The notes below the pieces were generated by a model. That model searched no databases, was not told the DNA's origin, and worked only from the letters and a program-made list of their open reading frames with translations. A program made the translations under genes and the position numbers. Below, piece by piece: positions 37,995 to 46,370 of a stretch of DNA of 64,000 bases (within the stretch, counting starts at the first letter, position 1; each line of letters opens with the position of its first letter). Source of the stretch: Vermamoeba vermiformis (Eukaryota); NCBI GenBank assembly GCA_045837725.1, contig JBEWZL010000145.1:248001-312000 (forward strand), given 5' to 3'.

Positions 37995-40900
37995 TTACTT
38001 TTTGATCTTCAATGACTTCAACTGCAGCTCTCGCTTCGAGGCGCGGAGAATGTCAAACCACTGCTTCTTTTCAGCGGGGGTCTTGGCTTGCAGTTGATAC
38101 AGCTTGCCTTTGACGTCTAGCTCCACGCAGTTGACCAGATCCACTCCGTCAGCGCGGTCAACAACACGAGCCTCACCGAGGTCTACGACAGCTTTGTTCT
38201 CAAACTTGTCTTTCTGTGCCTTGGGCTTAGCAATGATCACCAAGTCGTTGAACAAGAACACCCAACTCGGCTGTCCATTCACGACGAGCTCGCCTTCTTT
38301 CAAGTACTCGCGTGTCTCATTCAACAAGCTCTGCACGCCATTGGTCAGCACGATATCCTAACACGTCAATCACGTTACTTACGATCTTCAAGCCTTCAAT
38401 GTTGTGCTCAATCTCGCTCATGCGCTGCAAGGTCTCAGCCTTCCTCTTGCGATCATTGACAAAGTCTACCACGCCTTCAATCTTCTTCTGCGCTTTAATG
38501 ATGCTTTCATAAGCTTCTGTGTTCTCGGTCGGGATGTACTTCAACAGCTCCTGGATGGAGGTTAGTTTTATATATCATCTTTGATCGAATTCTCAGAATC
38601 ACTTGCCTTGAAGAACAGAGGATATTTGCAGATACGTTGCACGGGCTTGATGAGAAAACTCGACAAGAAAAGACCACGACACTTGGGATCAGACTCGCAG
38701 ATTTGAATGGTCTTGACGAGCTCTTGTCGTGTCTTGGTCAGTTGTTCCAACAAGATCAGTGCTTGCGTGTGAATGGTGCAGTACTGCGTGTACATCTTGA
38801 AGTAGTCTGACAGCGACAAGAACAGTTCTGCCACTGCTTTGGTCTCGTCAGTCATTTGCTTCTTCTTCTCTTCCCACGTCTTAATGACTTCTGTGTTGAT
38901 TTGCAGCAGAATTTCCACATTGCCGAAGATAGATTTGATTTCGTCCTCAGTCAGCACTCCTTTGATGCGCAGTGGTGTTAAGAACACGCTGTCGATGATG
39001 TTGAGGTCGTTCACGTAATCATATTCCGTGGAAATAATCTCTTTAATCACCCTTTGCAGTGGTGTTAAGTTCGGGTCTTTGTAGTCTGCCAGCTCTGCAT
39101 CGATAAATCGTTAGAATTAACTCAAAAAAATTGTTGGTATCACACGTACTGTCCGCCAATGTCTTTTCTTCACGTCTTTCAATGACTTCGTGCGTCGACT
39201 GCTCGCCGCTGAGTGCGTTTAAATCGTCATTGTCACTAATCAAAATTGCCTTTCTGAAGCGTTCGAATGAGGTCGGTTTTGTCACGTACAACACGTCACG
39301 CAACATCTTGGCTACTTCTGCGACAATGTTATCCACATCCGAGGACTGAAGATTGCGCTTGCACCAAATCTGATCGAAGCTCTCTACAGCCATGACAGCT
39401 ATTTCCGTGAATGCGTTGGGCAAGAACATGACTGGGAAGATGACACGTGTCTGTGGCTGTGTCGGTAAGCGCTCCGTTGCCTCCAATCGTCGTTCACCTC
39501 GTTTAGAAGCCAAGTACTGTTCAAACTCCTCGAGTCGGAACACACTCAAGAAGGCATTGACGAGCTTGAATGTGACGCGCGACACCCCATAGCGCTGCCC
39601 GTCTGTGCGATGTTGCTGCATTTCAATCATTTTCTTGAACTTGCTCGTCTTCGTTGTGGCGAGATGGAACAAGACTTTAACACCCAACTCTCCTGCCTCT
39701 AGTTCAGTGAACGGTGTGTTGTTTTGGAAGCCAATGAATCGCCATTCAGGTGAGTTAAATTCAATCGACGGAGCTTCAGGGAATGCATTGTGATAGATGG
39801 TCGTGAGCTTGAATCGGAGCTTTTCAGCGTCATTGGCCTGCTTTGAGCGACTGATGCCAGCAATCATTGCCATCTGATAGAGCCACAGATCGTCTTTCCA
39901 ATCAGCTGTCACGCCACTCACCACTCGCTGTTGCACGAGATTGTTGAGGCCAATTTTCACGAGTAGTTTGAGGAACTTCTTCTCGTAGATGACATTCAGC
40001 CTGGAGAGGGTCGCACTGAACAGCGCAAAGAATCGCAAGCAGTCAGCGAGCAGCGCTACTTCATTGGTCTCGAAGTATTTGAGAATTTGACGGAACAGTT
40101 CTTCGTCTGCGCGGCGCTGTTCAATTGGACCCAAAATACGCAAGTCATTCATCTCGACAAATGACAGCAACAGCACAATGATTGCCATGCAGTTGCGCCA
40201 CGCATTCAAGTTCTGATCGTACGTCGATACAATGTCGAACAAGCTCTGCACAAACGACGCACTCACAAACTCGTAATCAGCAGCGGTAGTGAGATACGAC
40301 AGCACTGCATTGAGTGCGTAGGCCAGTGTGTTGCCTGCAAACTCGGGGATCTTGGTGATGAGGAACTTCATGCCTCCTTGCTTGCCGAACTCAACGGCGT
40401 AACTCTTGTTCTATGTAGCAAGGGTGAATAGTCGTACTTGAAGGAGGAATAATAAATACCTGTAGCTTCTTAATGAGATCAAAAATGGCTTTCTTCGAGT
40501 AACTGAACAGCTCTCGTATTGTTTGTTCGATGTCCGCGAGTGTCTTATTTGACTGCAACGTTGGATTAAGCTTCAAATGCACTTCTTCGCCGCGCAGAGC
40601 ATCGAACTTCCTTTTGTCCTTCAGATCTGCTTGTTGAATGTATGAATTTGAGCCAGGATGGTACAGAGCAAATAATGTGGCCTGTGCTGGAATATTGAAC
40701 TTCTCCAATATGCAGCCAATGTGTGTTTTGAGAGGAATTTCACGATCAACCATGAGCGGAATTATTTTGGGGCTCTTGGCATCACCATAATGAATCCTCA
40801 GTGGCACTGCCTCGCTGTTGACCGCGGACACTCTACGACCACCAATAGCTGTGGGACCTGAACGAGTGCCAGGATTGAGCATTGTGTTTGTGTTGTTGGT

Positions 40901-43900
40901 GGTGGGCGGTGAGTTCTCCACTCTGTTCATCAGGGCCATGAGATTGGGTGATGAAGGCGAGGGTCGTGGTGAACTGTTCGGACTATCTTGACGTCCAATA
41001 GCGATGTTCTCTGATGACGGTCTTTTGTTGTTCAAGTCAGGACGTTGCCAGAAACCAGCGCGCTGTGGCCATGATTAGTATCACTGATGTGCAATGTCAA
41101 ATGTCTTACCCTGTTTTGACGTGCTGGTGGTGGATCTCGCGGAGACGACTGTGGAGAGAGTTGTGGCGAGTCTATTTTTGGCTGGTTAAAGGAAGGTGTG
41201 TGATTTGGTCGGATTGGCAATTGACGCGGACTCTGCCCTGGTATGTTGCGGAATGTCGGTGAAGACATGGAGGTGTCGACAAGTGAGTTGTGCGTGTTGT
41301 CTAATGATCTCGGCGAGGCTACTGAGACACTGCCAGTGCTGACATGAGTGTTATCGAGACTGCGTGGTGAGGCATACGGAGAGAATGAAGGAGGCTGTTT
41401 CTTCGGTCCAGTTGTCACGAGAATGACTTTGGATCGCTGCTCCTCTTGTTTGGCTCTCTCTTCTTGTGCTCGTCTAGCACGCTCTTCTTCTTCGCGCCGT
41501 CTCCGCTCTTCTTGTTCTCTGCGCATGCGGTCCTCTTGTTCACGACGCGCTCTTTCCTCCTGCTCGCGTCGCATCTGTTCTTGTCGTTGTCTCGCGAGTT
41601 CTTGTTCGCGAATTTGTTTCAAGTGCAGCAATTGTCGTTGTGCACCAGCTCTTCGCACGTAGCGTTGAATGGACACGACAAATCTGTTCAACATGAGTCC
41701 TCTCTGCTGGTCCAGCACACGAGCCATAAAGTCCTTCAAAAACACCTTTGACCTGCCAACTTGCCACTCTTGACAGGTGCCGTCGAGTGCTTTCAAGTAC
41801 GATTTGATTTTGCTAACTTTATCGCCAGGCCCGCTGCCCATCAAATAGTGGTATCGCTCCCAAAAGGTGTCAATGCTGTACCGAGCACCAAATCCAGCAC
41901 GTCTCAATTTCACAACTTGCACGATAGATGTCGAGCGCAGTTGATTCATCACCTTGCCGCCATCAAAGTGACCACTCTGCGAGGTCTCGTTGGGCTTAAT
42001 GCAACGCACGAAGTGGCATTTAGATGTTGATAACACGGTTGCTAGCGCTGCAAGTTGATTTTTGAACGCAATGCACACCGAAGCCTGACTCGAGTTAGTC
42101 ACATCAAGATAATTGGGCTTGTAGAACATACCTTGCGCGCTGCAGGAGATCTATTGGGAGCTACAGACGGCGACCTTCGATCACCAGGCGAGTCTGCGTT
42201 ACTGCTTGCAGCTGTGAAGAGGTGCTTCACGAGCGGCACTGAACTGGTCGAGAGCAGCTGTTCTACGTCTTGACTCATTGTATCTTTGTTCTTCTCCAAG
42301 AAATTGTGCACATTGTACGTGACATCTTCAATGAAGTGGCGCAAAGTAAATCTGTGTTGCTGCTTAACATCGAATACTACTAACGGATTGGCGCCTTGAG
42401 CCTTTTTGAATTTTTGCACGAATCCCTTCATGATGTTAGCAAACAATACTGCAAGGCTATAAACTACGTACGTCATCTGAACCTTTAGGTACGCGACCCT
42501 CTTCATCGAGCAGTGCCAGCAGACCGTTTGTCTTGTGCTCTAATAGGTCAATACAGCTGCGCTCGTCAGTGTCAATGTGACTCCACGATATTCCTTCGCG
42601 CTCGTACTCTTGCTGTTCGAATTTGAACCAGTGCTCGCTCATCAACTGCTGCAGTCGTTCATTGGCATAATTGATCAACAGCTGCTCCAAACTGTTCTCG
42701 GTAAACACTTCAAAACCGTAGATGTCCAACACACCAATGCACGCGCTGTTCTGACCGAGTTGTTTCGGTCGCAAGCTGGTGTTAATGCGATCGATCAGCC
42801 AATCGAATAACAGATGATAAATTGCTTTGGCGAGTGCTGCACACGTCTCTTTGGCCTGTGCAGGTGTGAGAGGGATGTGGTACTGCGTCTGTCTGTTGCC
42901 ACTCTGGAATGAGCGGCCAGTCAGTGTGGACTGCAACTGCGCCTCTTCAATGCCCAGCAATCGCGCGCACAATGCTAGTACATCGGTGTTCACTACTGCT
43001 GAGCCTGCAGTGCCCGATTGCGAGCCTGCGAGTGGCGCTGAAGGTTTGAATTCAATGTTGCCGAGGTGCAGAATGACCGCGATGAGTGACATGATCTGTT
43101 GCTGCTCTTCGCGCGTGATTCCAACTTCACTCATTGTCTGCTGCAGTTGTTGCCAGTGTTGTCTGTCGTGTTGGTCTGTGTTCAACTGTGGATCTACACG
43201 ACCATTGCAGAGATAGTTGTATCGATTATTAGCTGATAGTCCTAGTCTTCTTCGCTCATCTTCACTCGCTCCATATAACAGATAATAAAACACATGATAA
43301 TTGCGCTCTTCAGAAGCTTGAAACACGATCCGTGTCTTTTCGAGCAAATAGTGCTCTATTTGCGCGCCAGTAATGTGTCCGCTAGGGTTGAAAAATACTC
43401 GAATGAATTTGCCAAATCGACTCGAATTGTTGTTTTTAATCGTCTTCGCATTGCCAAACGCTTCAAGGACCGGATTTGCCGCCAAGACTCGCTTAGCAAC
43501 GTTGTCTAAACAAGGCTGTTAATATTATAACCCTATTATAAAATAGCAGACCATCGTACCTAGATTGCTATGACTGCTTGCATAAGCAAGAAACTTCAAA
43601 ATGTATTTTGTCGCCTCCGTCTTGCCAGATCCCGATTCACCGCTAATAACAATCGACTGCGGAGTATTATCGCCCATCATAGATCTATATGCATTCGTCG
43701 CAGTTGTGAATACATGCGGTGGAAGAGCGTTGTTGTTCAGATCCGCCTCGTTGTAACGCTTCATAGTAGCGTCGCTGTACATATCGACAGCTTTGAACGG
43801 ATTGACCGAGACTATCAACTCGCCTATATTCGTCTAAATAATAAACTATATTAATACCGCAGGCAAGCGTTACGTTATATTAAGTGCGGAATTGCGTACG

Positions 43901-44446
43901 TAGATCTTATCCTGCGAGTATCGCTTCTTGAGATTATGCAATACACTAGCCTCATTCAAATCATCGATTTTAATCATGTCATCGAGGTCTTGAATAGGCG
44001 TCTTAGTGCGTATTGGCAGCGCTTGACTTTCATCGACCGAGAATTCCTGTGACGATATAAATGATTACAATGCGTTAATTGAGCAATATATTTATTTAAT
44101 ATAGTAGACCGTATTATTAATATAAAAATGCATAAGCTGTAAATAAAGATTTTATAAATTAAAAATGGAAATTTGGCTTAGGCGAATGAAAACATGATTT
44201 TGACAACATCGTTTAATTGACGATACTAAACCATATTAAATTAAAATATTGCCTAGATTATAAACAATTAACTGTAACGGTCAATTTCTTTCGGATGGGA
44301 AACTAATTATTGGCATTGATCCAGCGCATATTTACCTCTCCAGAATCCAATTTAATATTATATTTATTGCCATTTTTAGATAGGACTGTCGCCAGTGCCC
44401 AACCTTGCTGTGCATCTGCTACCCAAATTTGCGTGTGATCTGCCAT
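37995..44446 (-). CDS. Unconventional myosin with ELMO module and DH-PH RhoGEF tail
   Basis: GESGSGKTE, LEAFGNAKT, NNNSSRFGK, LDIYGFE, HFVRCIKPN; IQ; ER/Q-rich helix; WRFIGFQ (ELMO); KEIISTEYDY...FLIKPVQRICKYPL (DH); VFLFND...EKKQWF (PH); tail exons join in phase. Confidence 0.9.
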
Positions 44447-45465
44447 CTCTTTGGTTCAAAGTGATGCACCAATAATCATTATTATACGCGTATAGTAGTT
44501 AAATGTGATATATAATACATAGTCCTATCTTTCTAAACGCTAATTAAATGACGAAATTGTCGGCACATTCAATTGAATTTCAACGGCCACCGATAGCACA
44601 CAACATGTAATATAAATAATCACTATGCGGTCACAACTGCAGTATATATTGTGCGTAGCAATACTACGGAGTAGAACTTGTTCGTGGGTAGAAGATCACG
44701 TTTGAATTATGAGCCAACTGGTACGCTCGAAATCATCGTTATTTCTAATTTCTACTAACACAACAACAAAAATATATATACTTTGGATACTTTCAAAATT
44801 ACTTGCTTTACTGTCGTTTTATAATTATTTTGCTTGGATAAGAGCAACCAACACAACGACCTCAATCGTGCATATCTTTGTCACTAACATCGCGCTATAA
44901 TATGCGGAGATGTTGTAGATTACATCATTTTTGCAACACGAAAGCGAGATCTGCTAGAAATTCGAGTACAAAACTAATGAACAGGAACTACTTGTGAACT
45001 CTAACCGCCGGCACATCTTTATGACTTTGTGCAATCTACGCTCGAAAAAAATTATTGTATGAACGAGCAGACAACCAGGAAAGCCACGGCAACAGGAACA
45101 TTGAGCAAAAACTTCTCAGCCGCTGCAGTTGAGGCTCGGTTAGGGCGGATAATGCTACCTGCGCCTTTGTAAACTATTCAACTGCTACTGCCTCTCATTC
45201 AGCTTCTCTGCGTCGCGGATGTGCTTCCCGCTGAAGAGGGTGTCGAACGCGTAAAATATCGCCACTAGCCAATTTAAGTGTGTCCTAACCGCTGTCACCA
45301 ACACAAAAAGATATTGCAGCCGAATAGCAGCTAATTTCTCGCGGAAAATTGAGGGAAAACTCGCAACGGAGCTCGGTAAAAAAAGAAAAAAATCGGCTTT
45401 ATTTTAGTTCAGACTCAACAGTCAGCACCACCCAACGCGACAAACATTCACACTTAACACTAGCC

Positions 45466-46370
45466 ATGAGCCGCCGACGATCATCTTCCCCTCCCAAGTT
45501 CGAAATTGCCGGATCGACTTACAGTACGAGTCACCACGTAGAATCCGCTTTATAATTCCGCTAATTCTTTGATTTTAGAGGTCATCACTGCCCCTATTGC
45601 AGGCAAAAAGTATGGCGTCCAAGACGATGAATTCTGTTTCAAAGTAAAAGTAAGTCACAAGTTAGATCGTGTCACGAAACATTTCAGACTGTTGCTAACT
45701 CGCTTGATTAGCAAATGTTCGAACAAATCAACTCGAAAGAATCCCGCCTTCTTGTAGTAGGCAAGAGAGGCCTGCGCCTTCTGGTGCCCGGTACTGAGGT
45801 AAAAAGAAATAAAATTTAAAAAATCGAGATTATGCGCCTCAATCTTGATTAAATTTTGCTAATCGAATATGTTATAATGCAGGAAGAGATAGCAAACTAC
45901 TCATACTATGTCATACGCGAATTCAATCTCAATGAGACTGCGAAAACTTTTGACTTTGAATACAAAGACACTGCGGCCAATGAATACAAACGATTGAAAT
46001 TCAAGACTAAGGAGGTACGTAATATTATAGCATGCCATAGTTTCATCGGTTGCTTTCTCTTAAATAGGATAACCAGCTGCAATTTCAGTCGGATTCATTA
46101 ATTAACCTACTTTCTTGATTTTAGAGCTTGGCCATTCAAAACCATATTAACGATGCCTTGAAACAAATCCTTAAAGAACATCATATTGACAACCCAGATC
46201 AAGTCCTTGCGGACAACACGAAGGTAGGTCCTGCGCACAAGAGCAGCACCACGTCCTCACCGCTGCCGCAACGACGTCGCTCAGGCTCGCACTCGAAGAA
46301 GAGACTATCGCAGAATCACGGCACTGGCGGCGAGAAACTGCTCTACACAGCCCTCGATGACGACGAATAG
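45466..46370 (+). CDS. Small uncharacterised protein, possible PH-like fold
   Basis: Five short exons; beta-strand-rich core followed by helix AIQNHINDALKQIL; basic tail. Confidence 0.65.

Follow-up and report, generated by a model that had tools for sequence, protein, structure and literature searches.

Can one amoebozoan polypeptide carry a myosin motor, an ELMO-type adaptor module and a Rho-family exchange factor at once? The question is raised by a gene on the minus strand of a 64,000-nucleotide stretch of Vermamoeba vermiformis DNA (contig JBEWZL010000145.1, positions 248,001 to 312,000 of the forward strand; hereafter the window, from whose first letter positions are counted), for which a first-pass annotation had proposed the order motor, IQ, E/R/Q-rich helix (a putative single alpha-helix, SAH), linker, RBD, ARM, ELMO, DH and PH in one protein. 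This architecture is confirmed here (Table 1), and its product is, on balance, best read as a MyoM-like motor-Rac guanine nucleotide exchange factor (GEF) which arose by gene fusion and whose GEF ELMO would target and gate in cis.

Gene structure and splicing

Removal of ten introns joins eleven exons into a single open frame of 1896 aa plus stop, starting with the ATG at 44446 and closing with the stop codon at 37997-37995. Nine introns are GT-AG and intron 9 is GC-AG; all measure 46-66 nt with the exception of intron 1 (289 nt), and retention of any one of them places a stop in frame. The joints were compared with contigs of four of the eight listed public runs, among which X1, X2 and X3 come from three different studies and yield contigs mostly at least 95% alike to the window. 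Introns 3, 5, 6, 7, 8, 9 and 10 are spliced out exactly in the X1-X3 contigs, with the joints of introns 8 and 10 present in all three runs, as is that of intron 6 (47 nt, 41109-41063), which splits the 184-aa linker, and with introns 5 and 7 joined in two. Intron 4 is marked only by a 9-nt loose end identical to the end of exon 4, and intron 2 by two inexactly matching reads from a more distant organism (X6).

Exon 6 runs unbroken through the last 120 motor residues, the neck, the SAH and half of the linker, so that joints 5-8 chain the motor to the DH domain. The gene is real, expressed and conserved, and the in-phase gene proposed by the first-pass annotation was recovered with exact coordinates, one frame and joints across every motor-to-DH intron. 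A reading as two separate genes was rejected in view of the lack of any gap, of internal introns of only 46-66 nt and of the splicing of joints 5-8. Motor, ELMO module and DH-PH very probably share a single chain. A further joint, 38654-38788, was rejected as part of the gene; it misfits the model, has non-canonical ends and lies between loose ends shared by X1 and X3, and we take it as deriving from another DH gene.

The ELMO module and its predicted C-terminal exchange factor

Pfam was run exon by exon; Myosin_N was matched, as were Myosin_head, ELMO_CED12, ELMO_ARM, RhoGEF and PH, the families against which the annotation suggested checking the protein, all above their curated cut-offs except for the short exon-2 piece of the motor. 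For the RBD, Pfam gave a weak hint only (ForC_N, E 0.014, below cut-off). Against a profile built from 18 ELMO N-termini with the query left out, exon 7 scored 40.4 bits, the best of 200 shuffles reaching 4.6, and the top four fold matches of its model (pLDDT 81.8) were ELMO1/ELMO2 chains (including 6jpp and 7y4a), ranked above ubiquitin. The exon-8 model (pLDDT 86.8) matched only ELMO2/ELMO1 at E<=0.001 (four matches, TM-score 0.67-0.72); the exon-8 sequence alone found nothing among PDB sequences, its likeness being detected via alignment and fold only. ELMO alignments went into the folding of both models, a choice that favours ELMO fold matches and of which the Pfam and profile scores are independent. 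Pfam, profile and fold all agree on the ELMO identity that had been claimed, the RBD, EID/ARM and ELMO segments of the ELMO/CED-12 adaptors being all present.

ELMOD proteins act as GTPase-activating proteins (GAPs) through the consensus WX3G(F/W)QX3PXTD(F/L)R, in which, as stated in PMC8483735, the Arg is invariant and even its change to Lys abolishes activity. The first-pass annotation had noted the absence of this Arg, and the alignment places Glu1384 at its position, with Glu also found in a sister species (contig L043). The Asp of the motif is likewise replaced by Glu, and its W, G, F, Q, P and T are kept. The earlier remark is refined by the homologues, as the Arg is kept in 30 of 37 aligned sequences and absent from the other 7 and from human ELMO1; thus, its loss is not peculiar to the fusion protein. 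The ELMO domain is likely to be regulatory rather than a GAP; PMC6548286 describes it as having no assigned function in ELMO1-3.

The query follows the ELMO profile (702 positions) as far as position 504, the very point at which the DOCK-binding PH/PxxP part starts; it is this end that ELMO uses for DOCK binding (PMC7351999). Pfam scans of the gene's exons detected no PH_12 at E<=0.1, the last 120 aa contain no PxxP, and the DH-PH occupies the place of this DOCK-binding end.

All invariant columns of a 37-row DH alignment are present in the query, with the residues of conserved regions 1 and 3 intact and a PH following, as in the Dbl family. The nearest solved DH domains are those of intersectin, ARHGEF4, P-Rex1 and Tiam1 (E from 6e-24, for intersectin, to 1e-17), and those of ARHGEF11/12 are more distant (E about 4e-12). 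Intersectin, ARHGEF4, P-Rex1 and Tiam1 act on Cdc42/Rac. The DH-PH is predicted, with high probability, to be an active GEF, as judged from its conserved residues. Complex prediction of ARM-ELMO with the exon-9 part of the DH returned a score of 0.01, which speaks neither for nor against contact.

Motor, neck and linker

Of the hallmarks of an active motor, the P-loop, switch I, switch II and relay are all intact, and the SH2-SH1 Gly is Ser; on balance, the ATPase is probably active. In the actin-binding loop, Thr384 is taken by us as the TEDS site, by the rule that this residue stands 16 before the DALAK-like motif. PAK kinases prefer an Arg/Tyr context such as that found around it. The same position rule gives Thr for myosin VI, in agreement with PMC6981383. 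Ser or Thr occupies the position in all nine rows of the clade that were listed, and R-x-S/T-x-Y in seven of them; one further clade member, outside these nine, did not fit the pattern.

The IQ motif proposed by the first-pass annotation is seen as a degenerate pattern match only and finds no counterpart in Pfam scans of the gene's exons. The putative SAH that follows (60 aa) is proposed from composition, E, K and R making up 67% of it and 83% when Q is added.

Host genome and conservation

The host genome compared comprises 43.3 Mb in 309 contigs, and its 18S gene contains exact sites for both V. vermiformis primers (table in PMC5057267), 502 nt apart as published, which marks the organism as V. 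vermiformis. A group I intron inside this rRNA gene brings its length to 2310 nt (L055:2227-2567, minus; RF00028, 103.9 bits). Contamination, or a prokaryotic or viral origin, was rejected as an explanation, the genome having a eukaryotic 18S and the contig collections holding no relatives: 156 pattern stretches in genome contigs and 42 in viral contigs gave no confirmed relative.

Two metagenome contigs (L043 and L044) represent one sister species with 79% nucleotide identity to the window. They retain the order SAH-linker-RBD-ARM-ELMO-DH-PH with identical intron positions, the GC donor included. The ratios dN/dS between the species were 0.075 for exon 7, 0.096 for exon 8, 0.005 for exon 9 and 0.008 for exon 10, at a dS of about 1; the DH is strongly conserved. 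The GC-AG intron in the DH-coding part (window 38606-38551; about 2551-2604 in L043) is spliced in X1. The ELMO module also has a more distant orthologue, observed as exon fragments with extra introns on contigs of 3-8 kb (P0022, P0048, P0006 and P0049). They are 62% identical to the query over 91 aa, most ordinary ELMOs giving 29-37%, and 31-36% identical in the next exon.

Within the host genome, where locus counts are lower bounds and 150 of 154 DH candidates were scored, this is the sole myosin locus of 11, and the sole ELMO locus, with an adjoining DH match. DOCK genes and PAK-type genes are present, with three PBD+kinase frames among the six PBD loci examined.

Relatives and origin

Exon 8, compared with proteins of 736-2100 aa, retrieved no full-length fused homologue among 5647 candidates, which is weak evidence. 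Among the families displayed for 45 representative exon-8 matches (the best five for four of them), neither Myosin_head nor RhoGEF appears. The best 120 of 7999 motor matches include none with ELMO and one with RhoGEF, and none of the 68 DH matches drawn from 873 candidates has a motor.

The top DH match among these 68 is a cluster from Phalansterium solitarium, whose long member (P0244) starts at the RBD and reads RBD-ARM-ELMO-B-box-DH with no motor, its RBD-ARM being 32% identical to the query over 189 aa. ELMO is also paired with DH in a partial sequence from Planoprotostelium fungivorum (P0192) and in an unnamed transcript (P0217). Since motor-less ELMO-DH proteins occur in other amoebozoans, the pairing of ELMO with DH appears older than the fusion to a myosin. 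In a 43-row tree of DH domains chosen by similarity to the query, the query falls in a group (support 86.7/93) with the domains from Phalansterium and from Planoprotostelium, together with one fragment.

The motor tree was computed under LG+F+G4 from 28 rows, 15 of 43 having been dropped (long branches, near-duplicates and short rows); these rows too were found by similarity to the query. It unites the query and Pyxidicula-type SAH myosins at 95.8/98; at 92/92 the query also groups with a metagenomic motor-SAH-Pro-rich-DH myosin, devoid of ELMO, and its relative. A quick tree of all 43 rows gave the same two groups (SH-aLRT 95 and 99). Nearer motor relatives carry a FERM or an unrecognised tail. 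The gene probably goes back to the fusion of an amoebozoan SAH-myosin and an ELMO-RhoGEF gene that already existed, an origin on which the ELMO tree carries no information. Side by side with these proteins, two others (P0034 and P0038) have talin-type FERM F0 repeats instead of the PH end of ELMO, P0038 also having SAM, and their layout indicates that the ELMO module is paired with other C-terminal units too.

Proposed mechanism

The functions of motor, GEF and ELMO module put forward here are predictions from sequence. The IQ and SAH neck would make the protein a single-headed monomeric motor, tethering or moving its tail on cortical actin, and the DH-PH would load GTP on a Rac/Cdc42-type GTPase, as the tail of MyoM does. 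The ELMO module, presumably non-catalytic, would do in cis for the DH what ELMO does for DOCK in trans: it may read an upstream GTPase or receptor, bring the GEF to the membrane and probably restrain it until engaged. Such gating is proposed by analogy with DOCK2-ELMO1, where the N-terminal module of ELMO occludes the Rac site and yet is needed for Rac activation in cells (PMC7351999).

Rac-GTP could in turn activate PAK, so that phosphorylation of Thr384 would close a feed-forward loop, local to protrusions or to feeding cups. PakB, as reported in PMC3708727, binds GTP-Rac and phosphorylates the TEDS sites of class I myosins; for the present protein, a PAK feedback on Thr384 is a tentative proposal. 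A role in cups or protrusions is slightly favoured by analogy, considering that the MyoM tail RhoGEF is reported to exchange on Rac1 and to induce actin-driven protrusions (work cited in PMC1914345). The part in phagocytosis or macropinocytosis suggested by the first-pass annotation likewise stays a prediction. A broader scenario, plausible to a minor degree only, is that amoebozoans possess a DOCK-independent ELMO system that gates a Dbl-type GEF of the same chain, mounted in Vermamoeba on a PAK-switchable myosin. If true, one polypeptide would sense a GTPase or receptor, activate Rac and be switched on by a Rac effector kinase, and the motor would travel along the actin that it induces; the protein would be a module for engulfment or protrusion that amplifies itself, and would form its own myosin class.

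Weighing the alternatives

Several points weigh against a gated motor-GEF arisen by fusion. Regarding the transcript, (i) the RNA nature of X1-X3 is a guess, no run being recorded as RNA, (ii) intron 1 has no coverage in the compared runs, (iii) no single read or contig reaches from motor to DH, and (iv) the X1 contigs have a depth of about 8-20 along most of the tail versus 0-4 along the motor. The contigs of the sister species end before the motor, so that the motor-tail linkage is seen in one species only. At the SH2-SH1 junction the motor has Ser in place of a Gly found in 26 of the 27 other motors aligned; this Gly is the pivot in myosin motors, and the motor may thus be slow or a tether. 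Regarding origin, support in the DH tree is moderate and the P0217 DH is placed apart from that of the query, the ELMO tree puts the query on a branch 1.68 long beside Arg-less ELMOs and not beside P0244, and neither the motor nor the DH tree includes Dictyostelium MyoM or any named Myo45.

The depth step in X1 fits a 3' bias and also a tail-only transcript, and would be explained if the main product were a motor-less ELMO-RhoGEF begun internally in exon 6 or 7, with the fusion as a minor isoform, or if the chain were cleaved after translation. Motor-less ELMO-DH proteins are viable designs elsewhere, and the low-complexity linker of 184 aa could be cleaved. On the contrary, X2 displays no step between tail and motor (0-3.4 in both halves), contig depth being in any case a poor measure of expression level; moreover, a stop enters the motor frame only on retention of intron 6, this intron is spliced in three runs, and no intergenic gap exists inside the gene. 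We regard a predominantly motor-less product as quite improbable. It is only slightly less improbable that the ELMO domain is still directed at Arf/Arl, by binding or as a GAP using another residue, coupling Arf membrane traffic to Rac without gating the DH. The kept residues of the GAP motif and the purifying selection on the ELMO exon are in line with this, as is an Arl4A-ELMO RBD complex cited by title in PMC6548286. The charge reversal from Arg to Glu in both species argues against it, considering that Arg to Lys already abolishes the activity of ELMOD proteins.

A more serious alternative, although still an unlikely one, is that the gene is the Vermamoeba orthologue of MyoM (class 45), into which ELMO was inserted or from whose dictyostelid counterparts it was lost, so that the protein works as MyoM does, with ELMO as an accessory scaffold. 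The order motor-SAH-S/P linker-DH-PH is the same, the query motor groups with the metagenomic motor-SAH-DH myosin that has no ELMO, and no other myosin-DH was found in the host genome. MyoM is most likely Myo45 of the Kollmar scheme, an equation that we assume in part from matching SAH length, and which counts as a weakness of this orthology. Every known class-45 myosin bears an SAH, and the class is recorded from dictyostelids and Balamuthia (PMC5378345); the query shares with them an SAH after the neck, by composition only, and a tail DH-PH, and departs from their shared architecture, for which no ELMO is reported, in its RBD-ARM-ELMO module. Against orthology, the query DH joins those of motor-less ELMO-DH proteins, the partial DH of the metagenomic myosin gives only 27.5 bits with the query, albeit over just 60 positions, and nearer motor relatives have other tails. 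Fusion of an SAH-myosin with an ELMO-RhoGEF is thus the reading retained.

Features and neighbouring loci

Table 1. Features of the myosin-ELMO-RhoGEF gene, in window coordinates. Pfam scores are in bits, with cut-offs in brackets.
Feature	Position	Strand	Evidence
Whole gene	37995..44446	minus	spliced model; 7/10 introns matched by spliced joints
Exons 1-4	44446-44336, 44046-43900, 43833-43560, 43505-42472	minus	gene model
Exons 5-8	42425-42132, 42084-41110, 41062-40460, 40410-39150	minus	gene model
Exons 9-11	39094-38607, 38550-38383, 38330-37995	minus	gene model
Myosin N-terminal SH3-like domain (aa 5-37)	44336..44434	minus	Pfam Myosin_N 29.7 (27)
Myosin motor (about aa 55-742)	41719..43995	minus	Pfam Myosin_head over exons 2-6, best 401.7
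Presumed TEDS-site Thr384, R-x-T-x-Y context, actin-binding loop	42886..42888	minus	alignment position
One degenerate IQ motif (about aa 755-775)	41620..41682	minus	pattern match only
E/R/Q-rich putative SAH (aa 779-838)	41431..41610	minus	composition
S/P/T-rich linker (aa 847-1030, 40% S+P+T)	40808..41406	minus	composition
ELMO-type RBD, ubiquitin fold (aa 1031-1113)	40559..40807	minus	profile and fold matches
ELMO armadillo/EID region (about aa 1114-1330), spanning intron 7	39859..40558	minus	Pfam ELMO_ARM 29.9 (27) and fold
ELMO/CED-12 domain (aa 1342-1508)	39325..39825	minus	Pfam ELMO_CED12 65.1 (23.3) and fold
GAP-like motif, Glu in catalytic Arg position	39744-39679	minus	alignment
DH (RhoGEF) domain (about aa 1580-1765), spanning GC-AG intron 9	38443..39056	minus	Pfam RhoGEF 141.5 (27.6)
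Dbl-type PH (aa 1786-1885), then short basic C-terminus	38031..38330	minus	Pfam PH 32.2 / SOS1_NGEF_PH 35.9

Two neighbours were observed in the window. On the plus strand, at about 45170-45700, lies a divergently oriented spliced transcript with an intron from 45524, a contig depth far above that of the myosin gene and no convincing Pfam match. Downstream on the minus strand, a gene at 37401-36127, whose intron at about 37515-37364 is removed in three runs, encodes a hydrophobic stretch and then a charged Lys/Pro-rich tail, for which the Pfam scan returned no match.

Elsewhere in the genome, a very divergent myosin motor on a long branch (L053, G000:C178:43900-53800, minus) is followed by same-strand frames with RGS (weak), LRR, FYVE and then Ras-like matches, either as one gene or as neighbours. 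The genome's most divergent motor (L052, G000:C278:110700-120600, minus; branch 2.9) continues into a frame of 974 aa for which Pfam gave no match, and kinase frames lie about 1.2 kb past the next long frame. Two myosin genes (L050 and L051, on G000:C234 and C123) are near-identical and share their exon layout; the C234 copy groups with myosin I, and the pair reflects either a recent duplication or an uncollapsed haplotype.

Novelty and comparison with known systems

In animals, ELMO regulates the engulfment switch. Motor phylogeny and tail architecture together define the myosin classes, and tubulinean amoebae are thinly sampled. Vermamoeba is a common grazer of water systems that hosts bacteria as well as giant viruses, which makes its feeding machinery of ecological interest. 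The first-pass annotation did not recall any such architecture, and no description of one combining myosin, ELMO and RhoGEF was found in the literature searched, which excluded figures, CyMoBase and subscription papers. The term ELMO is absent from the main text of the myosin classifications PMC5583752, PMC3942036 and PMC2375034, and from the species table of PMC5583752, which includes Hartmannella vermiformis; Additional file 1 of the latter, on class architectures, could hold such a myosin. For Dictyostelium, the account in PMC6548286 gives six ELMO proteins, of which none has a DH or a motor, and it cites an ELMO-like protein associating in trans with myosin II. The motor-less ELMO-DH proteins P0244, P0192 and P0217 are database entries with no description found in the same literature.

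A motor joined to a Rac GEF is not a new idea, MyoM being known; what appears undescribed in the literature searched is a Dbl GEF that has an ELMO module in cis, whether or not a motor is attached. The gene adds a myosin tail not found there and brings to light a broader range of ELMO-DH proteins among amoebozoans. It also offers a natural test case for the role of a non-catalytic ELMO domain, as the module stands in cis with a Dbl GEF and lacks the DOCK-binding end, so that deletions can ask if ELMO is a general GEF gate. The whole suggests a motor carrying and gating its own actin-triggering signal.

Among known systems, Dictyostelium discoideum MyoM comes closest, as the first-pass annotation had it, both being myosins with a long SAH (97 aa in MyoM, PMC4571873) and a tail RhoGEF. 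The comparison is made by description, not by sequence: MyoM has 1737 aa and the query 1896 aa, of which RBD-ARM-ELMO takes up about 480 aa ahead of the DH, and the literature examined mentions no ELMO module for MyoM. Human ELMO1/2 (CED-12) share with the query RBD, ARM/EID and ELMO in the same order and fold, as well as the lack of the GAP Arg; unlike them, the query has no PH_12 or C-terminal PxxP and carries a Dbl-type DH-PH and a motor in the chain. The ELMOD1-3 GAPs and the Arg-bearing amoebozoan ELMOs (such as P0004, P0007 and P0019) have in common with it the ELMO/CED-12 domain and most of the GAP motif, and differ in the Arg and Asp that are both Glu in the query. The motor-less ELMO-RhoGEFs share the succession of ELMO and DH(-PH) in one chain: P0244 differs in keeping the GAP Arg and in its B-box and long spacer, P0217 has SAM and no motor was seen in it, and none was seen in P0192, although this partial sequence lacks the N-terminus. 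Finally, class IX myosins also combine a motor with a Rho-family regulator in the tail, according to Pfam lists, but they form a separate motor clade, with C1 and RA domains, and their regulator is a RhoGAP, which switches its GTPase off.

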